Made by a program: the position numbers and the translations under genes. DNA of 63,674 bases from an uncultured Candidatus Saccharibacteria bacterium. GTDB taxonomy: Bacteria; Patescibacteriota; Saccharimonadia; Saccharimonadales; CAZPPF01. The stretch's first letter is position 1, and each line of letters begins with the position of its first letter. The notes under the pieces are model-generated. The model ran no database searches. It was given only the letters and a program-made list of their open reading frames with translations, and had not been told where the DNA came from. The stretch lies in assembly GCA_964588395.1 (NCBI GenBank), contig CAZPPF010000001.1:6656-70329 (forward strand), in the 5' to 3' direction. Below, in pieces: positions 3,467 to 23,682 of the stretch.

Positions 3467-4537
3467 ATGGGGATTTTAAAATCAACACTCTTTGGACTGG
3501 GCGGCATAGCGCTACTATTTGCAGCCTCACCATCTAGCTCAACGTACCAACTTCAATCTTATGGTATTGGGTCCGGAGGCAGTTCAGACAGTAGCTCAGC
3601 TACCTATAGGTCAACTACCATTAGTGGAGAACAGGGTTCAGCCTCAACTACCAGCACAACCTACAAAGCTGGCACCGGCATAATTCCAACTCAGCAAGCA
3701 AATGTTCCAGCCGCTCCTGCCGTCACAAATCCTTCAAATTACTACAATAAATTGCACATAGTCATTAACAATGGTGGTAACCCCAGTGACGCAACCTTTG
3801 CCATTGCAATTAGTCCCGATGGGTTTAGTCCAACCACAAATTATGTAAAAAGTGACCACACAGTCGGTGCGACTCTTATTAGTACGGACTGGCAAACCTA
3901 TACGACATGGGGGGGTAGCAGTGGTTTTGATGTCATAGGGTTGCTACCAAACACCACCTACACTGTCAAAGTTAAAGCCGAACACGGAGACTTTACTGAG
4001 TCAGGCTACAGTGCAGCTGCCAGTGCAAGCACCGTTGGTGCAAGTCTGACATTTGATATTGACGTTTCGGCAACCGATACAGACACTAGTCCACCGTATA
4101 CTGTTTCGTTTAACGCCCTAACGCCCAATAATGTAATAGATAGTAATCAAAAGGTTTGGATCGATCTTGATACCAATGGACAAAATGGTGGGGCAGTATT
4201 TGTGGTTTCAGCCAATGCGGGACTCCATAGTATTGCTGCAAGTAACACTATCAATTCTGCTACAGCCAATCTTGCAAGTGTAAACGAAGGGTATGGAGCA
4301 CAGAATTCCTCGGCAACACAGTCTTCTGGTGGACCTCTGACAGCCCAATCTCCATTTACTGGCTCATCACAAAACGTTGGCATTTTGGATACGATACTTA
4401 CCCGAGTGTATGCATCGTCTGGACCAATTGTGGCTGGTCGGGGCTCGTTACTGCTAAAAGCACGAGCAACTTCTACCACACCAGCCGCAATCGACTACTC
4501 GGATGTTTTAACATTAATTGCTTCTGCTAGCTTTTAA
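3467..4537 (+). CDS. Secreted surface protein: FN3-like domain plus WxL-like C-terminal half
   Basis: Signal peptide present. FN3-like segment (PAAPAVTNPS..LPNTTYTVKVKAEHGDFTESGYS). The C-terminal half aligns with that of the next gene and ends in TPAAIDYSDVLTLIASASF-stop. Confidence 0.6.
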   Translation: MGILKSTLFGLGGIALLFAASPSSSTYQLQSYGIGSGGSSDSSSATYRSTTISGEQGSASTTSTTYKAGTGIIPTQQANVPAAPAVTNPSNYYNKLHIVINNGGNPSDATFAIAISPDGFSPTTNYVKSDHTVGATLISTDWQTYTTWGGSSGFDVIGLLPNTTYTVKVKAEHGDFTESGYSAAASASTVGASLTFDIDVSATDTDTSPPYTVSFNALTPNNVIDSNQKVWIDLDTNGQNGGAVFVVSANAGLHSIAASNTINSATANLASVNEGYGAQNSSATQSSGGPLTAQSPFTGSSQNVGILDTILTRVYASSGPIVAGRGSLLLKARATSTTPAAIDYSDVLTLIASASF

Positions 4538-4564
4538 CAGCTTGTGGATAAACACGGAAAAGGT

Positions 4565-4593
4565 TTGACACCCGCGCGAGTAAAACGTAAGCT
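4565..4593 (+). promoter_or_regulatory. Sigma70-like promoter: TTGACA, 17 nt, TAAGCT
   Basis: TTGACA at 4565-4570, a 17-nt spacer, then TAAGCT at 4588-4593. It lies 22 nt upstream of the 4615 ATG. Confidence 0.5.
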
Positions 4594-4614
4594 TTACCTA
4601 AGAACTTCAATTTT

Positions 4615-5661
4615 ATGAAAGAAAGAACACAAATTATGCAAACATTAAATAGGCCGCTGTATTTTATTGCAGCGTTTTTATTGGTGATAGCCGCAATTTT
4701 CGGAATTTTGGCATCAAGAGCTAATGCTGCAACATTAACGAACTCATACATCCGTCTGGACCGCATGAAAGCGGGGCAAACCACTTCTTTCAGACTGGTA
4801 TTTAAGACAGTTGGTGCTGGTGCTACAACGGTAGCAGTTAACTTCAATGGAGCTGACTCAACAACTTGGACAGGCTCATCTGGTGTAGTTAATGCCACTC
4901 AAACGGCTGTCGGTGCCGCTGGATGTGATGCCAGTGCAACTTCATTGCCGGGTACACTGAGCGCTTCAGGCTCGGGTTCAACGGTGACAATTACCGGTGT
5001 GACTGCTCTTTCTGCTACAACAGCCTATTGCGTTGACTTAACTTCTACGACTGCAGTAACCGATGCAAGCGCAGGTGAATACCACCCAACTATAACTGTT
5101 GGTAGCGACTCAACCACCGTAGCAGTTCGCACAATTTCTGATGACCAGGTGACGGTTAATGCAACCGTACCACCATCTTTTAACTTCGTACTGGACGCAA
5201 ACAGTGCCAACTTCACCAGCAGTTTGGACACTTCCAACGTACGTAAAACTTCTGACCGAACAGTTACTATAACAACGAATGCAATCAATGGTTGGATAGC
5301 CTGGGCAAAAGACTTGAACACAGGGCTACTTTCTTCAACGGCTTCTCATACGATTGCTTCAACCACGCCTGGAACTGCCGCCACCTTAAGTAATGGTACC
5401 GAAGGTTATGTTGTCGGCGTCGAAGTTACTACTAACGCTTCAGGCGGTGGTAACCCTTCAATACCTCTTGCATATCAAGGTACTGCTGCTAATAATGCCG
5501 GTAGTGGTCTTGACTCTACCTATCGCATGATCGCAAGCTCTGCTGGCACAGCAAATGGTGATGTAATTACCTTCCGTGGGAAAGCTGCAATTGACGGAAA
5601 CACTCCTGCCGCAACTGATTACGCGGACACCTGGACTATCATTGGCGCTGGTTCGTTCTAA
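4615..5661 (+). CDS. Secreted WxL-like surface protein (candidate major subunit)
   Basis: Signal peptide with an ANA-A cleavage motif. The protein is Thr/Ser/Ala/Gly-rich and looks beta-rich. It contains NGWIAW and ends in TPAATDYADTWTIIGAGSF-stop (W-x-[LI] motifs). It has its own promoter and a strong terminator. An alternative start is at ATG 4636. Confidence 0.6.
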   Translation: MKERTQIMQTLNRPLYFIAAFLLVIAAIFGILASRANAATLTNSYIRLDRMKAGQTTSFRLVFKTVGAGATTVAVNFNGADSTTWTGSSGVVNATQTAVGAAGCDASATSLPGTLSASGSGSTVTITGVTALSATTAYCVDLTSTTAVTDASAGEYHPTITVGSDSTTVAVRTISDDQVTVNATVPPSFNFVLDANSANFTSSLDTSNVRKTSDRTVTITTNAINGWIAWAKDLNTGLLSSTASHTIASTTPGTAATLSNGTEGYVVGVEVTTNASGGGNPSIPLAYQGTAANNAGSGLDSTYRMIASSAGTANGDVITFRGKAAIDGNTPAATDYADTWTIIGAGSF

Positions 5662-5684
5662 CCAGTTTAAAAAGTAGCGATAAA

Positions 5685-5707
5685 GCCGGCCAAATGGCCG
5701 GTTTTTT
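5685..5707 (+). terminator. Rho-independent terminator
   Basis: GCCGGCC, loop AAAT, GGCCGGT: a 7-bp GC-rich stem with one G-U pair. It is followed by TTTTTT (5702-5707) and sits 24 nt after the stop codon. Confidence 0.8.
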
Positions 5708-5758
5708 ATTGATCTTTGGAAATGATAACAATGCCCCTGTTATACTAGATGGTAATAA

Positions 5759-6835
5759 ATGGGTATTGTTAGACCACTTCGACTTTGGGGAATTATCTGT
5801 GTGCTGGCTGTCAGCATTTTATTGTATGGACGAGGCCATGCCCAATCTGACACTGGCGCCCTGAACCTGACAACCTCACCACTGCCCATCAGCTTGACGG
5901 CTAAACCGGGCGAAACAATTACGACTGAACTACGCGTCAAGAACAGTGGCACTAAAACTGAAGTACTCAAAGTCGGTCTCATGAAGTTTAGTGCGGTTGG
6001 TGAAGAAGGTAAGCCCCAACTGGATGACCGTCAACCAGGCGATGACTACTTTGACTGGGTCAGCTTCTCCGAGAACCAGTTCGTTGCCCAACCGAATGAA
6101 TGGAAAAGTATCACGATGACCGTGGCGGTACCGAAGACCGCAGCACTTGGTTACTACTATGCCGTGACGTTTTCACGCGCCAACCCCGAGACTGCGATCG
6201 ACAAAAACGCCCAAGTTCGGGGTGGCACCGCTACGCTCGTATTGCTTGATGTCCTCTCGCCTAACGCCAAGCGTCAAGCCAAGCTTACCGACTTTCATAC
6301 CACCAGAAAGATCTACGAGTTCCTGCCCGTTACTTTCGTCATTAAGTTAGCTAACACCGGCAACATTCACTTAGCACCGTCGGGCACCATTTACATTAAA
6401 CGTGGTAAACAGCAGATCGATACCATTCCGGTTAACACTACCAAAGGCAATATTCTACCAAAGAGCAGCCGTGTCTTTACGGTCCAGTGGGATGATGGCT
6501 ATCCAGTCTACAAAACGAAAGAGGCAGGTGGTACCACAGTGCTCAAGAATGGCCAACCAGTTATGACGTTGCATTGGGATAACGGCAAGCTGGGCAAATT
6601 ACGTTTCGGTAAATACACCGCTAACTTACTGATGACGTACGATGATGGCACGCGCGATGTGCCGCTGGAAGCCAGCGTTAGCTTCTGGGTAGTGCCGTGG
6701 AGACTAATTATAGGCATTATCTTAGTTCCACTAATTCCGGCATTACTTGTGTACTTCATTATGAGACGACGATTTAAGAAAAAGCTTGCCAAACATACGG
6801 CACCTCAGACAAGTCAGAAGGTAAGTAAATCGTGA
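5759..6835 (+). CDS. DUF916/DUF3324-like cell-surface protein, C-terminal TM anchor (paralogue 1)
   Basis: Signal peptide (..GRGHA-QSD), a ~290-aa beta-rich ectodomain, a single C-terminal TM helix and an Arg/Lys tail. The architecture matches CscA-type proteins of WxL loci. Confidence 0.6.
   Translation: MGIVRPLRLWGIICVLAVSILLYGRGHAQSDTGALNLTTSPLPISLTAKPGETITTELRVKNSGTKTEVLKVGLMKFSAVGEEGKPQLDDRQPGDDYFDWVSFSENQFVAQPNEWKSITMTVAVPKTAALGYYYAVTFSRANPETAIDKNAQVRGGTATLVLLDVLSPNAKRQAKLTDFHTTRKIYEFLPVTFVIKLANTGNIHLAPSGTIYIKRGKQQIDTIPVNTTKGNILPKSSRVFTVQWDDGYPVYKTKEAGGTTVLKNGQPVMTLHWDNGKLGKLRFGKYTANLLMTYDDGTRDVPLEASVSFWVVPWRLIIGIILVPLIPALLVYFIMRRRFKKKLAKHTAPQTSQKVSKS
5837..6705 (+). repeat. Copy 1 of an 869-bp perfect direct repeat (offset 1061 bp)
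   Basis: Identity with 6898-7766 begins at CATGCCCAATCTGAC and ends at GTGCCGTGGAGACT. The flanking bases differ (c5836 vs t6897; a6706 vs g7767). The encoded ectodomains are 100% identical. Confidence 0.9.
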
Positions 6836-7881
6836 AACGAACTAGCCTACTATTTATAATCATTATTCTGGCTACGGTGTTTGTAGTCCCCTTTATTCAT
6901 GCCCAATCTGACACTGGCGCCCTGAACCTGACAACCTCACCACTGCCCATCAGCTTGACGGCTAAACCGGGCGAAACAATTACGACTGAACTACGCGTCA
7001 AGAACAGTGGCACTAAAACTGAAGTACTCAAAGTCGGTCTCATGAAGTTTAGTGCGGTTGGTGAAGAAGGTAAGCCCCAACTGGATGACCGTCAACCAGG
7101 CGATGACTACTTTGACTGGGTCAGCTTCTCCGAGAACCAGTTCGTTGCCCAACCGAATGAATGGAAAAGTATCACGATGACCGTGGCGGTACCGAAGACC
7201 GCAGCACTTGGTTACTACTATGCCGTGACGTTTTCACGCGCCAACCCCGAGACTGCGATCGACAAAAACGCCCAAGTTCGGGGTGGCACCGCTACGCTCG
7301 TATTGCTTGATGTCCTCTCGCCTAACGCCAAGCGTCAAGCCAAGCTTACCGACTTTCATACCACCAGAAAGATCTACGAGTTCCTGCCCGTTACTTTCGT
7401 CATTAAGTTAGCTAACACCGGCAACATTCACTTAGCACCGTCGGGCACCATTTACATTAAACGTGGTAAACAGCAGATCGATACCATTCCGGTTAACACT
7501 ACCAAAGGCAATATTCTACCAAAGAGCAGCCGTGTCTTTACGGTCCAGTGGGATGATGGCTATCCAGTCTACAAAACGAAAGAGGCAGGTGGTACCACAG
7601 TGCTCAAGAATGGCCAACCAGTTATGACGTTGCATTGGGATAACGGCAAGCTGGGCAAATTACGTTTCGGTAAATACACCGCTAACTTACTGATGACGTA
7701 CGATGATGGCACGCGCGATGTGCCGCTGGAAGCCAGCGTTAGCTTCTGGGTAGTGCCGTGGAGACTGTTAGCAGTATTTATCGGCATTCCAGCAGTACTG
7801 CTAGCAATAATAATTTATCTTGTGGTATCTAGACGAAAATATAAGAAACAGGCCAAACGAGCCGAAACGGCAAAAAAATGA
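6832..7881 (+). CDS. DUF916/DUF3324-like cell-surface protein, C-terminal TM anchor (paralogue 2)
   Basis: The GTG start overlaps the upstream stop (GTGA). It has a different signal peptide (..VVPFIHA-QSD), an identical ectodomain, and a different TM anchor and tail. Confidence 0.6.
   Translation: MKRTSLLFIIIILATVFVVPFIHAQSDTGALNLTTSPLPISLTAKPGETITTELRVKNSGTKTEVLKVGLMKFSAVGEEGKPQLDDRQPGDDYFDWVSFSENQFVAQPNEWKSITMTVAVPKTAALGYYYAVTFSRANPETAIDKNAQVRGGTATLVLLDVLSPNAKRQAKLTDFHTTRKIYEFLPVTFVIKLANTGNIHLAPSGTIYIKRGKQQIDTIPVNTTKGNILPKSSRVFTVQWDDGYPVYKTKEAGGTTVLKNGQPVMTLHWDNGKLGKLRFGKYTANLLMTYDDGTRDVPLEASVSFWVVPWRLLAVFIGIPAVLLAIIIYLVVSRRKYKKQAKRAETAKK
6898..7766 (+). repeat. Copy 2 of the 869-bp perfect direct repeat
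   Basis: See copy 1. The antisense ORFs 6508-6792 and 7569-7787 also translate identically across their shared part, which confirms nucleotide identity. Confidence 0.9.
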
Positions 7882-9047
7882 AACAGCTTATACCCACCAT
7901 GTTTAAGAAATTGCTCTTATTACTTTATCTAGTGCCTATCCTACTTTTATCGGTGGCGCAAGGTTATGCAGCCTCTTCAAAGGGGGGAATTACAATTACA
8001 CCTCCCTTTCAAGAAGTGTTGATACTGCCAAATCAAACCAGTGTGCCAGGTAGCTTCGCAGTTGCAAATAATAGTTCACAGCCATCTACTTTTTCTCTGT
8101 CGACAGTAGACATGGGAGCACTAGACGATACGGGCGGTGTAGTATTTTCTGGTCTGTCGGCAGACTATCAGCAAAAATATGGACTTGCCCATTGGCTCAA
8201 ACTTGATACCGATAAAATTACGATTCAGCCCAAAAGTTCAGCGGTGGTTGGCTTTTCGATCCAGAACAACAGCACACTGGGTCCTGGCGGACACTATGGA
8301 GCTATTATTGTTAAGTCAACCGACCAAAACTCAAATTCAAAAAATCAAGTTAATTTAGCACCACAAGCGGCGTCGCTTTTATTTGTTAGAAAAGTGGGCG
8401 GAGAAATCTATAACCTAAAGCTTGAACCACCAACTTCCAAGACCTATTTATGGAAGCTGCCCACCAGTGCAACAGTTCGATTACGAAATGACGGGAACAT
8501 TCATGTAGTACCACGTGGTATTGTTATGCTCAAAGATCACTCCGGCCGCGAAGTCAGTAGGGGTGTAATCAACCCTGAATCATCACTGATTTTGCCCGAG
8601 CATGTAAGAGACTTTTCTGTGGTGTTTATGCCGCATAAACGTTTGCTCTTACCAGGAACGTATACTATCTCAGTTTCATATCGTTTTGAGGGTAGTGACA
8701 AGTTTGTAACTCAAACGTATAGCATCCGTTTTCTGAATTTACCACTTATTGGTCTTGGGTTGATACTTTTGATTACTCTCATTTTACTCATCAAACGCTT
8801 TGGCATTCGGCTTAAACGGCGAATTACAAAAATTTCACACATGAGAATGGTGAAAAAAATGTTTAAAAATGGCAAAGCATACGATACGGGTAGACCAACC
8901 AAGCGCATTAATCGTAACCAATCTAAACCCTTCTTCTTTTGGCCTACACGTAAACGCAAGCGGATAGCCATCCGTGACGGCGATAAGGATACTCAAAAGC
9001 TATCAAAAACTATGGATATAAAAGCGCCCAAAAAGCGCTCAAAATGA
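7878..9047 (+). CDS. DUF916/DUF3324-like cell-surface protein, divergent third paralogue with a long basic tail
   Basis: ATGA overlap with the upstream gene. Signal peptide present. GGITITPPFQEVLILPNQTS..GGHYGAIIV and RLRNDGNIHVVPRG..PGTYTISVSY resemble the DUF916 and DUF3324 halves. It has a C-terminal TM helix and an ~85-aa Lys/Arg-rich tail. Confidence 0.6.
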   Translation: MKQLIPTMFKKLLLLLYLVPILLLSVAQGYAASSKGGITITPPFQEVLILPNQTSVPGSFAVANNSSQPSTFSLSTVDMGALDDTGGVVFSGLSADYQQKYGLAHWLKLDTDKITIQPKSSAVVGFSIQNNSTLGPGGHYGAIIVKSTDQNSNSKNQVNLAPQAASLLFVRKVGGEIYNLKLEPPTSKTYLWKLPTSATVRLRNDGNIHVVPRGIVMLKDHSGREVSRGVINPESSLILPEHVRDFSVVFMPHKRLLLPGTYTISVSYRFEGSDKFVTQTYSIRFLNLPLIGLGLILLITLILLIKRFGIRLKRRITKISHMRMVKKMFKNGKAYDTGRPTKRINRNQSKPFFFWPTRKRKRIAIRDGDKDTQKLSKTMDIKAPKKRSK

Positions 9048-12319: not shown

Positions 12320-13645
12320 CTAACGATAACTTTCTATTAAATCTATAACAAGCGAAGCTGTCCAAGAAAAATTATGGGCGCCGGCAGGTGTGCCATCAAT
12401 GGGCGAAAAGTACTCATATAAACCATTTTTCTCAACCACAGCAGTTGTGGATTGAGCTAGCTCCGCAGCCTCTTCGTCAAAGCCATAGCGTTTCAGACCC
12501 TCTATTATCAGCCAATTGGTATTGATCCACACCGGACCCTGCCAATAGCTATGAGATTTAAACCAACTAGAATTGAGCGGAACGCTCGGGACAGGATACG
12601 GAGCACCAAAAAGTCGCTTGTCCTTAAGTAGCTCTATCAACTGCTGTGCTCGCTCTTTGGATACGCTACCACTATAGAGAGGCAGCAGTGTGGCAATACT
12701 GGGTTCCTTGATAAGTTTATGCGTAATAAAATTACGCGAATAATACTGACCAGTGTAGCCATCCCAGAGCATTTCGAGTGCATCCTCGGTTTTATTTATC
12801 TTTTTCGTCAGTTCATCAGGCAATTCGTGGTGAATAGCCTTGGCGATATGCCTTAGGCAGTGGTTGGCACGTACAAGCATAGAGTTAAAACCAAGATCTT
12901 CGATGGCAAACAAGGAGTGGCTGAGTATCTTGTCTATGTCGTAGGCTTTGCGACGTAAACGGTGCTGTACGCTGTAAAGCGCCAAAGCCTCAAAGGTTGA
13001 CAGACGTTGATCTGCAGGAACGTAGCGTGTATCGCGCCTAAGGCGGTTAACCAGATACACAAGTGGTTTTTTGGTGGCTAATCTAATCCAAAAAGGCAAC
13101 TGATGTTGTTTGAGCTCGCTCATCCAGGGCGGTGTATTGTCTAACCCCGTCTCCCAGGGGTGTACGAGCAGTACTAGGCCTTCGTCATGCGGGTCGCGTT
13201 CTTTATAGAGCCACTGATGATACGCTAATATCGCTGGAAAGACCTGCTGATACCAGGTGCGCCGCTCTGCCGGCTTTAGTTTTTCACCAATTTTTATAAC
13301 CGCTTCGGCAATAATGGGAGGCTGCGTAATTCCGCTGGTAGCTACATCATCTGGAGCAAGTGGATTGAGCCAGCTGCGCCAAATATTACGATCTTGGCGA
13401 TGTTTATCACCACCAGCAAAGATCATGTTCGGCAACATGCCGTTAGCCCATTGACCTCTAAGCAGGCTCAAGATTTCTTTTTGGGCACGATCGATATCGT
13501 AATGCCTAAGCCCAATAGAAATAAAACAACTGTCCCACAGCCATTGGTGCGTATAAAGCCCTTCGGTCGGGATTGTATAGTCACCATGTTTATTTATTTC
13601 CAGAACTGCCTTGGCTTGTTCAAGCAGATCTGCCGGTTCTTCCAT
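12320..13645 (-). CDS. (alpha/alpha)6-barrel glycoside hydrolase, GH63-like (glucosyl-/mannosylglycerate hydrolase-like)
   Basis: HQWLWDSCF near the N-terminus and SYWQGPVWINTNWLIIEGLKRYG near the C-terminus are typical of the GH63/GH37-type clan. Confidence 0.65.
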   Translation of the reverse strand: MEEPADLLEQAKAVLEINKHGDYTIPTEGLYTHQWLWDSCFISIGLRHYDIDRAQKEILSLLRGQWANGMLPNMIFAGGDKHRQDRNIWRSWLNPLAPDDVATSGITQPPIIAEAVIKIGEKLKPAERRTWYQQVFPAILAYHQWLYKERDPHDEGLVLLVHPWETGLDNTPPWMSELKQHQLPFWIRLATKKPLVYLVNRLRRDTRYVPADQRLSTFEALALYSVQHRLRRKAYDIDKILSHSLFAIEDLGFNSMLVRANHCLRHIAKAIHHELPDELTKKINKTEDALEMLWDGYTGQYYSRNFITHKLIKEPSIATLLPLYSGSVSKERAQQLIELLKDKRLFGAPYPVPSVPLNSSWFKSHSYWQGPVWINTNWLIIEGLKRYGFDEEAAELAQSTTAVVEKNGLYEYFSPIDGTPAGAHNFSWTASLVIDLIESYR

Positions 13646-20626: not shown

Positions 20627-21178
20627 ATGGTACGTGAGAGATATCCTGACAAACGAGAACGACGCGAAATGTTTAAGACCGCACAATCAGTGTCAGTACT
20701 GCTTCGTGAAACACGCGCGCATACTCGTCCACAAGGTCAACATGCACATAAAGGCATTGAAACCTATACACCCACACAGGCAAAACTTAGAGAAAAACAT
20801 TTTTTAGAAGTTTTAAGACACCGCGCTCCAGCATTACCACTCGTGGCTCTGGAGTTGGTTGAAGACACGGTTGAGAAACAATACAGAGATAATTTGCAAA
20901 TCATAGAGGCGCCTACAGTGGGCACGGTAGAAGAAGTGGATCTGGCTGCTGGGGCATTAACTTTTATCGCAACCGGTCTTGATCGTTTTGCCAGAACTAG
21001 CTTTGGCGGCAGAGAGCTCTATGCCTCGCCCGATGAAAATCTGCAGGTAGTTCGTGCCAGGTTCATGATATCGCGTATTGCTCTAGAAGATTCAGCCGCA
21101 TACAGGCGAGCGACGGCTCCGATTATTCAAGATCCAACGCTTTTTGACACTATTGACACGGTTGACCAACGGGAGTAA
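20627..21178 (+). CDS. Hypothetical protein (183 aa), no recognised motif
   Basis: GGGAGG lies 6-7 nt upstream of ATG 20627. The ORF-track start at 20549 would overlap pheT. The N-terminus is basic and the C-terminal half is Ala/Arg-rich. Confidence 0.5.
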   Translation: MVRERYPDKRERREMFKTAQSVSVLLRETRAHTRPQGQHAHKGIETYTPTQAKLREKHFLEVLRHRAPALPLVALELVEDTVEKQYRDNLQIIEAPTVGTVEEVDLAAGALTFIATGLDRFARTSFGGRELYASPDENLQVVRARFMISRIALEDSAAYRRATAPIIQDPTLFDTIDTVDQRE

Positions 21179-21228
21179 TATTGTTTCGCTTGGTTGAGCA
21201 CCGTGAGGTTTGACTCCCAAAGCGCACT

Positions 21229-21817
21229 TTGACAGGTGTAAATAGAGAATTTTAGACATGGACGATCATGCATGTACATTGAGAAAGTGTATAGGCTCGA
21301 TCGTCTATGTTATAGACAAAATCCTGATGCATGGTGCCCGGACGCTCGCGACGCGAGGTCAGTTCGAGAGTACAAAGGGGCGCAGCCGCCGCGAAAGTTG
21401 CGAAGCAGCGTTTCTTAGGTGCATCACGAGAGGAGAGAGTGCGAGTTCGCTCAGGTCAATTGCAACGACCTTCTGGCTTATATAGCAGTCTCCTTCTCGT
21501 TCGCTGAGCATACAATTGCTCACAGTTAGGCCCTGTAGGTTTGAAACTCTGTACGAGACGCGCAGTCTCCGCCCCAGCAGATTAGTAAAATCTACAGGGT
21601 CCCTTCGCGGGTCCCGTCGCTCCTGGTCACGAGACCTGCCCGCGTGGCTAGTCAGAGCGGCGGGACCTGCGTGTTCGTGCTGATGAGAATCAGCCACTTC
21701 CGTGGGGGAGAGGAGAGCGCGATGGTGCGGATGCTGAGGCTCAAGCCCTCCCAGCCGCCTGCCTTGGCATCCCCATCCACTCTTCTCCCCCCACGTCCAT
21801 CTATTTAAACCTGTCAA
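21229..21817. other. GC-rich, helix-rich non-coding island bounded by imperfect inverted repeats (candidate large structured RNA or MITE-like element)
   Basis: IR-L TTGACAGGTGTAAATAGA..TGGACG (21229-21264) matches the reverse complement of 21794-21817 (TTGACAGGTTTAAATAGATGGACG). Hand counts give 43/60 and 38/60 G+C at 21601-21660 and 21661-21720, against 22/60 at 21241-21300. Several long helices are listed under findings. The only long ORF is not protein-like. Confidence 0.6.
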
Positions 21818-21875
21818 TTTCTCCACTATTGCATGACACAGTTCGTGCCATGATGGAGAAACCAATTGAGCAGGC

Positions 21876-21895
21876 AAGCTTAACATGTTAAGCTT
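21876..21895. promoter_or_regulatory. Perfect 20-bp palindrome AAGCTTAACATGTTAAGCTT upstream of the ABC transporter gene
   Basis: The sequence equals its own reverse complement. It abuts TATAGT (21895-21900) and the ATG at 21904. Confidence 0.4.
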
Positions 21896-21903
21896 ATAGT
21901 GAT

Positions 21904-23682
21904 ATGAAGCATATTTGGAGAATTCTTAAATTTACTAAGGAGCTATGGCCGTACTACGTTAGCATCTCCATTTTCACCATTATTTTAGCTGGCATGAGTC
22001 AGCTGCAGCCCTTATTTACCAAGGGCGCGATTGACCAAATTACCAACCATCTAAGCGGTGGCAATGTAAACGTTAAGTTAGTAGCCACATTCGCGGTTCT
22101 GATATTTTTGACCGATCTCGGACAAACAATATTTAGCAACATTGGAGGCTATTTAGGCGATATATTGGCTGCCAAACTGCGCCAAAGCTTGAGCTCACGC
22201 TATTACGAGCATCTACTCAGCCTGCCTCAGCAATATTTCGACACAGAGCTATCAGGCAAAATTATTAACCGTCTTAGTCGTGGTATCAATCAGATTAGTG
22301 ATTTTATTCAGATGTTCTCTAACAACTTTATGCAGTTTATTTTTAGTACCGTCTTTTCGCTAATTATTGTAGCTATATATTCCTGGCAAGTGGCGCTTAT
22401 GCTGTTTTTGTTATACCCAGTTTTTATATGGATGACAGCCAAGAGTAGCGGCAAGTGGCAAGATTACCAGCATGAAATAAATGACAATCTCGACATTGCC
22501 AGCGGTCGTTTTACCGAAAGCGTGGGACAAGTAAAAGTAGTAAAAAGCTTTATTCAAGAAATCCGTGAACTGAAATTTTTTGATCGTCATATCAATAAGG
22601 CAACTGAAACCACTAAGCCACAGAGTAAATATTGGCATTGGCGCGATGTGCGGCGTCGGGTGGTGCTGAACTTCATTTTTCTAGCGGTCTTTGTGTATAT
22701 CTTTGTCGAAGCTGCTCGCGGCGTCTACACCATCGGCGAGATGGTCTTGCTTATCCAATATGCCGCGCTTATTCGCTTACCAATCTTTAGCATCAGTTTT
22801 TTGGTCGATCGGACGCAGCGAGCCATTGCCGATAGTAAAGATTACTTTGAAGCCCTCGACACCCTACCGGAAATCGCTGACAAACCTGGAGCCGTGCGGC
22901 TTGAGGTAAAACAAGGCGAAATTGTCTATCAGAATGTGAGCTTCAGTTACGACCATGAAGAGGTACTCAAGAATCTGAGTTTTCGAATTGAACCCGGCAG
23001 TAAAATTGCGCTGGTTGGGGAAAGTGGCGAGGGCAAAACGACTATCACAAACCTCCTCATGCGCTTATACGAACCAAAAGCTGGCACAATTATGATTGAC
23101 GGCATTGATGTGAATGAAGTTACTCAAACCAGCTTGCGTCAAAATATTGGTGTGGTATTCCAGGACCCAGCCCTCTTTAGTGGCACAATTTTTGAAAACA
23201 TCTCCTACGCCAATCCAAAAGCTTCCAAACAGGAAGTTGAGGAGGTAGCTAAAGCTGCCAATGCGCATGAGTTTATCAAAGGGTTTGAAAAGGGCTATCA
23301 AACTGAGATTGGTGAGCGAGGGCTCAAGCTCAGCGGTGGCCAGAAGCAACGAATTGCTATTGCCCGCGCACTGCTAAAAAACGCTCCCATTCTGGTCTTG
23401 GATGAGGCCACCAGCAGCCTTGATAGTAAGAGCGAAGTCATGGTTCAGGAAGCACTGGAGCGGCTCATGAAAGGCCGCACTACCATTATCATTGCGCACC
23501 GGTTAAGCACCATCCAACACGTTGACCAAATCATAACGCTTACGGGCGGTAAGGTTGATGAAATAGGTACTCCAGATACATTGTCCAAAACTGGCGGCAT
23601 TTATGACCAACTACTTAAACTGCAGCGTCGCCACACCGAAGCCAACGACGAAAAGCTTAAAGAATTTGAAATTGCTGCGTAG
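21904..23682 (+). CDS. ABC transporter, fused permease/ATPase (type 1 exporter, MsbA-like)
   Basis: Six-TM N-terminal domain, Walker A GESGEGKTT, signature LSGGQKQR and Walker B ILVLDEATS. Confidence 0.9.
   Translation: MKHIWRILKFTKELWPYYVSISIFTIILAGMSQLQPLFTKGAIDQITNHLSGGNVNVKLVATFAVLIFLTDLGQTIFSNIGGYLGDILAAKLRQSLSSRYYEHLLSLPQQYFDTELSGKIINRLSRGINQISDFIQMFSNNFMQFIFSTVFSLIIVAIYSWQVALMLFLLYPVFIWMTAKSSGKWQDYQHEINDNLDIASGRFTESVGQVKVVKSFIQEIRELKFFDRHINKATETTKPQSKYWHWRDVRRRVVLNFIFLAVFVYIFVEAARGVYTIGEMVLLIQYAALIRLPIFSISFLVDRTQRAIADSKDYFEALDTLPEIADKPGAVRLEVKQGEIVYQNVSFSYDHEEVLKNLSFRIEPGSKIALVGESGEGKTTITNLLMRLYEPKAGTIMIDGIDVNEVTQTSLRQNIGVVFQDPALFSGTIFENISYANPKASKQEVEEVAKAANAHEFIKGFEKGYQTEIGERGLKLSGGQKQRIAIARALLKNAPILVLDEATSSLDSKSEVMVQEALERLMKGRTTIIIAHRLSTIQHVDQIITLTGGKVDEIGTPDTLSKTGGIYDQLLKLQRRHTEANDEKLKEFEIAA

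Follow-up and report, generated by a model that had tools for sequence, protein, structure and literature searches.

What occupies the GC-rich non-coding stretch upstream of an ABC-transporter gene in an uncultured Candidatus Saccharibacteria bacterium? We analysed 63,674 nt of its genome (GenBank assembly GCA_964588395.1, contig CAZPPF010000001.1, positions 6,656 to 70,329; hereafter the window), for which a preliminary description made from the letters alone had proposed, at positions 21229-21817, either a large non-coding RNA outside the known classes or an insertion of the MITE type (miniature inverted-repeat transposable element), possibly acquired from a high-GC host. We report that window positions 21153-21861 are best read as a novel structured RNA of the plus strand, set inside a frame that resembles the leader and trailer of an rRNA operon. 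That these positions constitute a single-copy, chromosomally inherited RNA element with a predicted transcript, composed of a constant frame and a variable interior (the cargo), we consider likely, with a probability of roughly 0.6.

The comparisons below document the family to which the element belongs, its promoter, the covarying helices of its frame, a folding bias toward the plus strand and the lack of coding capacity in the window's copy. Every member (n=14) has the same frame, i.e. a promoter, a covarying 5' stem-loop (P0), an 8-nt linker, a long-range closing helix (P1) around a folded cargo, and a 3' hairpin without a U-tract. The family is previously undescribed and its range is a subset of the Saccharimonadales (Saccharibacteria/TM7); in the literature on Saccharibacteria and other Patescibacteria we found no structured RNA described besides the universal ones. 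The element starts earlier and ends later than first delimited (from the promoter to the end of the 3' hairpin), while the non-coding stretch, 21179-21903, is smaller than the gene gap stated earlier because the open reading frame (ORF) at 20627-21178 is probably a real orphan gene.

A family of single-copy elements downstream of pheT

Members were collected over about 915 kb of related loci using a hidden Markov model of the leader and then a covariance model (R1). Twelve loci were identified in this way, each with exactly one copy, and R1 scored 40-59 bits in the 12 members. L061 (partial) and L062 (complete, and identical to L063 in the element region) were added via their neighbouring proteins; both carry the window's type of cargo, and the comparisons of the window with these two are the only ones available for its own cargo type.

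The element is positioned downstream of pheT in all 12 of the 14 members whose contig covers the upstream flank, usually directly after it; the exceptions are the window and L061 (orphan ORF in between), L062 (unrelated ORF) and L011 (about 2.4 kb), and L055 does not extend far enough to reveal its surroundings. A pattern scan (leader and P1) of metagenomes resulted in 13 matches, of which only L055 is real, the others lacking P1, promoter and gene context, and the same pattern gave no match in viral sequences.

PheT retrieves 45 loci, nearly all annotated as Saccharibacteria/Saccharimonadales, while the remaining few carry no label more specific than Patescibacteria group or unclassified bacterium. 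The gene order pheT ... ABC transporter, NUDIX, FKBP is widespread among them. The distance from pheT to the ABC gene varies between 13 nt and more than 5 kb, and it is 13-186 nt in genomes that lack the element. In the PheT tree the members form two clades (L008, L046, L011 and L013; the window, L004, L002 and L003) and three singletons, and the element is absent from seven other close relatives (L009 and six more). This distribution fits old vertical inheritance with losses and not recent mobility. The window's closest relative by PheT, L004 (74% identity), has a run of 100 N (1998-2097) directly behind the initial 11 nt of P1, and its sequence picks up again within the NUDIX gene, so that the cargo of L004 and any ABC gene there are unreadable.

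Promoter, leader stem and closing helix

The features of the element and of its surroundings are listed in Table 1. The window's promoter has counterparts in the other members: TTGAC(A/C), a 17-nt spacer and TAnnAT, ending 6-8 nt upstream of the leader stem, are present in 12 of 12 members examined and also in L061 and L062. In the window, the stop codon of the orphan ORF falls within the -10 box. Transcription from this sigma-70-type promoter of the element's own would start at about 21187 on the plus strand and proceed toward the ABC-transporter gene. A TTGACA within P1 was considered as a second promoter and rejected, as no consistent -10 box was seen (by eye) 16-18 nt downstream across the members.

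The leader stem P0 shows covariation. Specifically, 79% of the P0 cells are paired compared to 44-53% with slid partners, and the covariation score is 0.324 against 0.14 or less for slid partners, with 1 of 500 shuffles scoring as high. Two of its pairs are frequently G.U across the members, and the first two bases of the linker are able to close P0 as well.

Further downstream, the inverted repeats that had been taken to bound the island are present (21229-21246 and 21800-21817, 18 nt, 94% complementary), and these are the only copies of the motif in the window, with about 0.14 expected by chance. The TGGACG/CGTCCA extension that had been included in them does not hold, since it is not seen in other members and TGGACG is part of the first internal hairpin of the plus-strand fold. 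Judged by their covariation, the supposed terminal inverted repeats are the two strands of one long-range closing helix, P1: 96% of the P1 cells are paired compared to 22-50% when slid, 7 of 13 pairs are altered on both sides, and none of 500 shuffles reaches the observed covariation score. P1 is 12-16 bp long across the members and its base, GACAG/CUGUC, is constant; the distal part varies and yet always pairs, e.g. UAAAUAGA/UCUAUUUA is switched to GAGC/GCUC in L062, and a pair inserted in L022 is compensated. The preliminary description had missed that a family-wide frame includes the repeats as one of its helices, and that the interior differs completely between lineages.

Table 1. Positions of the element's parts, of adjacent features and of genes found in the cargo of other members (window coordinates unless a locus is named).
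Feature	Position	Strand	Description	Basis
Orphan gene, 183 aa	20627-21178		between pheT and the element; one homologue (49% identity, L061) among 5.8 billion proteins; no family matches	
Sigma-70-type promoter	21153-21181	+	-35 TTGACA (21153-58), 17-nt spacer, -10 TAATAT (21176-81)	promoter scan
5' leader stem-loop P0	21187-21224	+	outer stem CGCUUGG/CCAAAGCG, UU bulge, inner stem GAG/CUC, variable loop	per-sequence folds, covariance model R1
Conserved 8-nt linker	21223-21230	+	CGCACUUU in the window, family consensus UGCACUUU; boxA-like	member alignments
P1, 5' strand	21231-21246	+	GACAGGUGUAAAUAGA; left inverted repeat	covariation
P2, first long cargo hairpin	21255-21311	+	UAGACA...UGUCUA-type base common to other members	fold
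Remainder of the cargo	21326-21795	+		minimum free energy (MFE) folds
Two-hairpin domain of the cargo	21326-21425	+		fold
Purine/pyrimidine helix of the cargo	21426-21500	+		fold
Small cargo hairpin	21505-21522	+		fold
Cargo hairpin	21529-21601	+		fold
Long cargo hairpin	21606-21671	+		fold
GCUGAU-GAGA-AUCAGC hairpin	21677-21697	+		fold
Terminal cargo hairpin, about 95 nt	21701-21795	+		fold
P1, 3' strand	21800-21815	+	UCUAUUUAAACCUGUC; right inverted repeat	covariation
3' hairpin	21818-21861	+	begins 2 nt past P1	inverted-repeat scan, fold
Perfect 20-nt palindrome	21876-21895	.	AAGCTTAACATGTTAAGCTT; ends 8 nt before the ABC start codon (21904)	repeat scan
Small CxxCxGxG ORFs inside the cargo, 43-61 aa	L014 12251-12391; L016 13113-13262; L055 about 640-763; L022 12790-12972	+		
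tRNA in the cargo	L003 7770-7842		within P1; 69 bits, well-formed, anticodon UAA, short variable arm unlike bacterial tRNA-Leu	
tRNA-like gene in the cargo	L002 3262-3336		within P1; 58 bits, tRNA-??? with anticodon given as 'tc'; anticodon loop of 8 nt by eye	ARAGORN, inspection

Fold strength and strand bias, and the possibility of a DNA-level element

As had been noted from hand counts, the core is GC-rich (0.56-0.68 over 21300-21800 compared to 0.35-0.48 in the flanks), and for 21229-21817 the values are 0.6-0.68 compared to about 0.43. The MFE of the plus strand of 21229-21817 is -284.2 kcal/mol, while dinucleotide shuffles give -201.4 +/- 8.0 kcal/mol (z = -10.4, with 0 of 100 shuffles as good); the corresponding values for the minus strand are -246 kcal/mol and z = -7.4. 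The plus strand is thus more stable by about 37-38 kcal/mol, without a composition effect, and its fold contains 24 G.U pairs compared to 15 in that of the minus strand, in keeping with the wobble bias recognised previously. Across the members the z values range between -4.5 and -18 (L062, -11.7 for the plus and -6.7 for the minus strand). The plus strand is the more stable one in 9 of 10 members, and in 8 of 10 when corrected for composition (by 16-37 kcal/mol in six of these); it is also richer in G.U pairs in 8 of 10. Wobble pairs are found repeatedly both in the leader stem and in helices of the cargo.

Could the repeats instead be DNA sites? The element might be an inverton with the repeats as recombinase sites, or a MITE with the repeats as terminal inverted repeats, possibly from a high-GC organism. 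The arms match perfectly by Watson-Crick pairing over 12-16 bp, with the conserved GACAG/CTGTC core and no G.U pair, and recognition by a recombinase or transposase would also keep them matched; the GC-rich interior and the patchy presence among close relatives agree with this as well. As in MITEs and Correia-type elements, a short non-coding unit carries inverted repeats that would pair if transcribed. Unlike these, the element is present in one copy per locus, with no further copy in the window or in the about 915 kb searched, always downstream of pheT where the upstream flank is present, and it is inherited within clades. The target-site duplications that dispersed copies had been expected to carry were not found in any member (the window's flanks read ...GCGCACTT and TTCTCCAC... 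on either side of the repeats). Moreover, the best-conserved part, i.e. promoter, leader stem and linker, lies beyond the repeats and is present wherever they are. In 10 of 10 members that can be judged the interior is oriented alike (as seen from P2 next to the 5' arm of the repeats in six and from a plus-strand ORF in four), and a second assembly of the same organism has it in this orientation too. No recombinase or transposase domain was found in the neighbouring genes scanned (most of them less than about 20 kb away), which have housekeeping roles or lack annotation, and there is no similar plasmid or phage record. Finally, neither a folding bias toward the plus strand nor wobble pairs in the remaining helices would be expected of DNA palindromes. 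Tandem guide arrays (CRISPR, TIGR) were likewise rejected, with just two trivial two-copy repeats of 9 and 12 nt being present. Taken together, the folding bias, the extra G.U pairs, the constant orientation, the conservation outside the repeats and the lack of duplications, recombinase, transposase, tandem array and plasmid or phage similarity favour a plus-strand RNA over DNA repeats; there is no support for a MITE, an inverton or foreign DNA, and we consider a DNA-level element very improbable.

A hypervariable cargo that stays folded

The window's cargo comprises 553 nt inside P1 and is GC-rich with about 8-9 structural units, mostly long hairpins; across the members the cargo ranges between about 330 and 910 nt. 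All internal helices listed in the preliminary description reappear in the MFE fold or in the repeat scan (21531-42/21588-99, GAGAC-GCGCA-GTCTC, TGAGCA/TGCTCA, GCTGAT-GAGA-ATCAGC, the 88-nt hairpin with 21704-15/21780-91, and GAGGAGA/TCTCCTT).

The window and L062 are 91% identical at the DNA level over promoter, leader and 5' strand of P1, and 74, 70 and 69% identical in the flanking ABC, NUDIX and pheT genes, respectively, compared to 46% in the cargo. At this divergence the two cargos retain size, order of units and fold strength (z = -11.9 and -11.7): nine structural units come in identical order in an independent fold of L062, and likewise those of the 5' half in L061. When a sequence-only alignment was subjected to RNAalifold, 39 of 85 pairs were altered on both sides; in a hairpin of 12 pairs there are 7-8 such double changes without a single pair being lost, and changes on both sides that keep the pairing are present in several other helices. 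For P2, the comparison with L061 gives 21 pairs, four altered on both sides, five on one side via G.U and none broken, and P2 covaries in the L008 clade too. Of the window's MFE pairs, 67% are canonical in L061 compared to 30-46% for slid controls, which is moderately positive. The cargo of the L008 clade has a conserved multi-helix fold of its own with 33 of 87 pairs compensated. Cargos cannot be aligned between subgroups. These comparisons indicate that the cargo evolves very fast in sequence while staying extremely well folded. For the window's cargo it is a conserved architecture that we claim, with the individual base pairs offered as a model and not as proven. A Needleman-Wunsch comparison of independent folds using sequence plus structure was rejected as non-discriminating, as L062 gave 59 'conserved' pairs, shuffled L062 34 or fewer and unrelated members 37-69.

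The cargo of the window is non-coding. The 175-aa ORF on the minus strand (21359-21886) had been judged not to be protein-like, and it matches no Pfam or NCBIfam family and only itself among 5.8 billion proteins. A comparison of the window and L061 cores revealed no protein-level similarity in any frame, and the window's cargo contains no ORF with both a Shine-Dalgarno sequence and protein-like composition.

Four members, L014, L016, L055 and L022, do have a small CxxCxGxG ORF in their cargo, about 65 nt ahead of the 3' strand of P1 and with sub-threshold matches to DnaJ-CR and anti-TRAP. The Shine-Dalgarno sequence ahead of it is very strong (in L055 it is perfectly complementary to the 16S rRNA 3' end over 12 nt) and is partly sequestered in a local hairpin. 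The mRNAs of type I toxins combine long-range closure of their 5' and 3' ends with sequestration of the Shine-Dalgarno sequence. The ancestor might therefore have encoded a small zinc-ribbon protein on an mRNA locked in this way (hok-type, type I toxin), and the window's copy would have lost both ORF and function. The element does share with hok and AapA1 a highly stable RNA closed by pairing of its ends, and the four members just described share the sequestered Shine-Dalgarno sequence. The encoded proteins, however, are Cys-rich, zinc-ribbon-like and soluble-looking and not hydrophobic toxins, and the window's copy lacks any trace of a small CxxC ORF. At least two clades have moreover kept the ORF-less form, its architecture being conserved and its pairs showing compensatory changes, and full size and fold strength at 46% identity argue for continued selection. 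A decayed mRNA cassette is for these reasons quite unlikely.

In the L008 clade, a pyrimidine tract like the 3' end of 16S rRNA, GGUUCCUCCUUUUU, follows a short hairpin about 25 nt before the 3' strand of P1 (L008 about 13062-13085, with equivalents in L046, L013 and L011), and the window's counterpart reads CUCUUCUCCCCCC. The tract may be a coincidence or an anti-Shine-Dalgarno mimic.

Comparison with known RNA classes

The Rfam search that the preliminary description had recommended was run and no family matches, whether RNase P, tmRNA, SRP, 6S, ROOL, GOLLD, OLE, raiA, HEARO, group I/II introns, riboswitches or any other: Rfam 15 at gathering score gave 0 matches for the whole window, and a permissive scan of 20900-22100 gave just miRNA-precursor noise (E about 1). 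Two tRNAs were the only matches in twelve related loci (seven member loci scanned at gathering score and five loci at E ≤ 1). ARAGORN predicted no tRNA or tmRNA in the window, and the whole 63.7 kb (1-63674) contains no tRNA, tmRNA or Rfam-recognised RNA gene. A cargo derived from a degenerate rRNA, RNase P RNA, tmRNA or intron was rejected, given that no Rfam signal is present and that the cargo is not conserved between lineages.

The large 'ornate' bacterial RNAs ROOL, GOLLD, OLE, raiA and HEARO are similar in general appearance. In common with these, the element is a GC-rich multi-helix intergenic island of 0.5-0.9 kb in an AT-richer genome, it has a narrow phylogenetic range and no assigned function, and some members are associated with tRNA-like genes. 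It differs in giving no match to their covariance models at gathering score or at E ≤ 1-10. Furthermore, their core, loops and junctions are conserved, whereas the element has a hypervariable core of near-perfect long hairpins and only its outer frame is conserved. With no Rfam match, a promoter of the same orientation in 12 of 12 members, the plus-strand folding bias and covarying helices that are shared, the part of the preliminary description that favoured a large non-coding RNA outside the known classes, read toward the ABC gene, has gained support.

The 3' end and the relation to the downstream genes

An equivalent of the window's 3' hairpin, 40-45 nt in length, is located 0-2 nt past P1 in seven of eight members folded and about 8 nt later in L011, and L022 also has one. 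The hairpins were compared by per-sequence folds, their loops being too different for alignment with MAFFT and RNAalifold. A U-tract is absent after the hairpin, and the terminator scan found no terminator-like site there. Hence it is not a classical intrinsic terminator, read-through into the ABC-transporter/NUDIX/FKBP genes is likely, and the transcript of the element probably continues into the ABC-transporter gene. In every resolvable case a gene of the same strand comes next, at a distance of 20-220 nt; it encodes an ABC transporter in 7 of 9, a NUDIX protein in L022 and a secreted protein in L014. The 20-nt palindrome in front of the ABC gene is kept at 19 of 20 positions in L062 though the surrounding spacer has diverged, and it could possibly be an operator or an RNA hairpin, perhaps on the transcript of the element.

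This arrangement raises the main alternative to our reading, namely that the element is just a long structured 5' leader (a cis-regulator or insulated promoter cassette) for the ABC-transporter/NUDIX/FKBP genes, in which the frame is functional and the cargo is a tolerated, self-folding expansion that P1 loops out and that has no function of its own. Besides the missing terminator and the position of the next gene, it would account for the far better conservation of the frame (91% compared to 46%) and for cargos that are interchangeable by lineage (non-coding RNA, tRNA-like genes, small ORFs). Also, the ABC gene lies close behind pheT where the element is absent, and the element thus brings an additional promoter to this gene. 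A junk insert, however, should drift toward an AT-rich unstructured background, while the cargos keep their fold strength (z = -4.5 to -18) and plus-strand bias, and their helices stay paired through changes on both sides. The downstream genes in L022 and L014 do not fit either, and a sensing leader should have a conserved core, of which none is seen. A riboswitch or other sensing leader was rejected on the same ground, i.e. cores that cannot be aligned between subgroups and a downstream gene that is usually, not always, an ABC transporter. We regard the leader explanation as unlikely, though it is the one to be taken most seriously.

An rRNA-operon-like frame

The reading preferred here, a structured RNA inside a leader/trailer frame, draws on the organisation of rRNA operons. 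The rRNA leader has the order boxB hairpin, boxA and a leader-trailer helix that contains boxC (PMC10250234). NusB-NusE have a footprint of 8 nt on boxA, which reads UGCUCUUUAACA in the rrn operons of E. coli and GGCUCCUUGGCA in Aquifex (PMC3177189), and the boxA consensus has been given as GYTCTTTAANA (PMC5725501). In the element, the P0 hairpin upstream of the linker and the covarying long-range P1 downstream of it give the rrn-type order. The linker and the start of P1, UGCACUUUGACA, agree with boxA of E. coli or Aquifex at positions 2-12 except position 4; GCACTTTGACA matches 9 of 11 positions of the consensus. P1 starts at nucleotide 9, directly past the 8 nt read by NusB-NusE.

On this analogy, the frame would work like the leader of an rRNA operon, with hairpin and linker as boxB-boxA. 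Bound Nus factors would shield the long untranslated transcript from premature termination and would keep the 5' strand of P1 close to the polymerase until its 3' partner has been transcribed. P1 would then close like a leader-trailer helix, loop out the cargo and possibly mark it for processing and, without a terminator, transcription would probably run on into the ABC-transporter/NUDIX/FKBP genes. A boxA/antitermination-type mechanism is in our view possible, with the odds somewhat against it.

The likeness covers a strong promoter, a hairpin (P0 in the place of boxB), a short conserved single-stranded motif and a long-range helix that encloses a structured untranslated RNA and finds its partner hundreds of nt downstream. 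The P1 strand is also G/U-rich (GGUGU), as is boxC, and tRNA-like genes are enclosed in two members, a further parallel to rRNA operons. There are also differences. The element encloses no rRNA (no match to the small or large subunit rRNA even at E ≤ 10), some members enclose a small translated-type ORF, and P1 abuts the motif directly while in rrn the helix begins 18-19 nt later. P1 is furthermore 12-16 bp long and without wobble pairs, compared to 25-40 bp in rrn. No rRNA genes are present in the window or in the other loci retrieved.

Several observations weigh against the reading as a whole. Position 4 of the boxA-like motif is an invariant A in the family, whereas it is U in every characterised boxA; positions 3 and 6 vary within the family, and about 790 kb of sequence contain no further non-coding site with the linker motif. 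As P1 has no G.U pair, P1 alone is equally compatible with an inverted repeat at the DNA level and cannot separate an RNA helix from matched DNA repeats. P1 also falls short of the length usual for RNase III substrates. For the complete relative of the window's cargo type, an unbiased test of the pairs gives a weak result, 53% of the window's MFE pairs being canonical in L062 compared to 38-50% in slid controls, and this exact cargo type has two sequenced relatives only (L061, L062). The frame is not restricted to non-coding cargo, since it encloses the small CxxC protein gene in four members and tRNA-like genes in two. Finally, close relatives that are entirely without the element indicate that it is dispensable.

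Neighbouring genes

The slot of the orphan gene upstream of the window's element is occupied by an unrelated 139-aa ORF in L062 and is empty in L004. In L011, an ORF with collagen-like Gly-X-Y repeats (about 12620-13100) is present between pheT and the element. Elsewhere in the window, at 3467-9047, there are five consecutive ORFs of about 350 aa without a Pfam match, mostly with signal-peptide-like N-termini, and the ORFs 5759-6835 and 6832-7881 are tandem duplicates (89% identical). A defence-system context was rejected, the PADLOC matches being merely to generic ATPase and NUDIX domains.

Implications for Saccharibacteria

The genomes of Saccharibacteria and other Patescibacteria are tiny and gene-dense. 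An element of 0.5-1 kb is notable in such genomes, with a frame that is better conserved than the adjacent essential genes, and a constant frame around a hypervariable and always hyper-folded cargo departs from the usual large bacterial RNAs with their conserved cores.

As a more speculative extension, Saccharibacteria may carry a dedicated cassette for the expression of stable RNA that follows the logic of the rRNA operon (boxB/boxA-type leader, leader-trailer helix) and yields a large structured RNA that is lineage-specific and fast-diversifying, with tRNA-like RNAs or small zinc-ribbon proteins as products in some lineages. Frame conservation combined with near-saturated divergence of the cargo would then reflect diversifying selection, one possibility being an RNA that acts in the interaction of the epibiont with its high-GC actinobacterial host or with phages. 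If true, this would represent a new class of modular bacterial non-coding RNA. If the leader is truly of the boxA type, Nus-factor antitermination and leader-trailer folding would be used outside rRNA in a deeply divergent phylum, and the element might provide a natural cassette for the expression of stable RNA in organisms whose genetic tools are just emerging.

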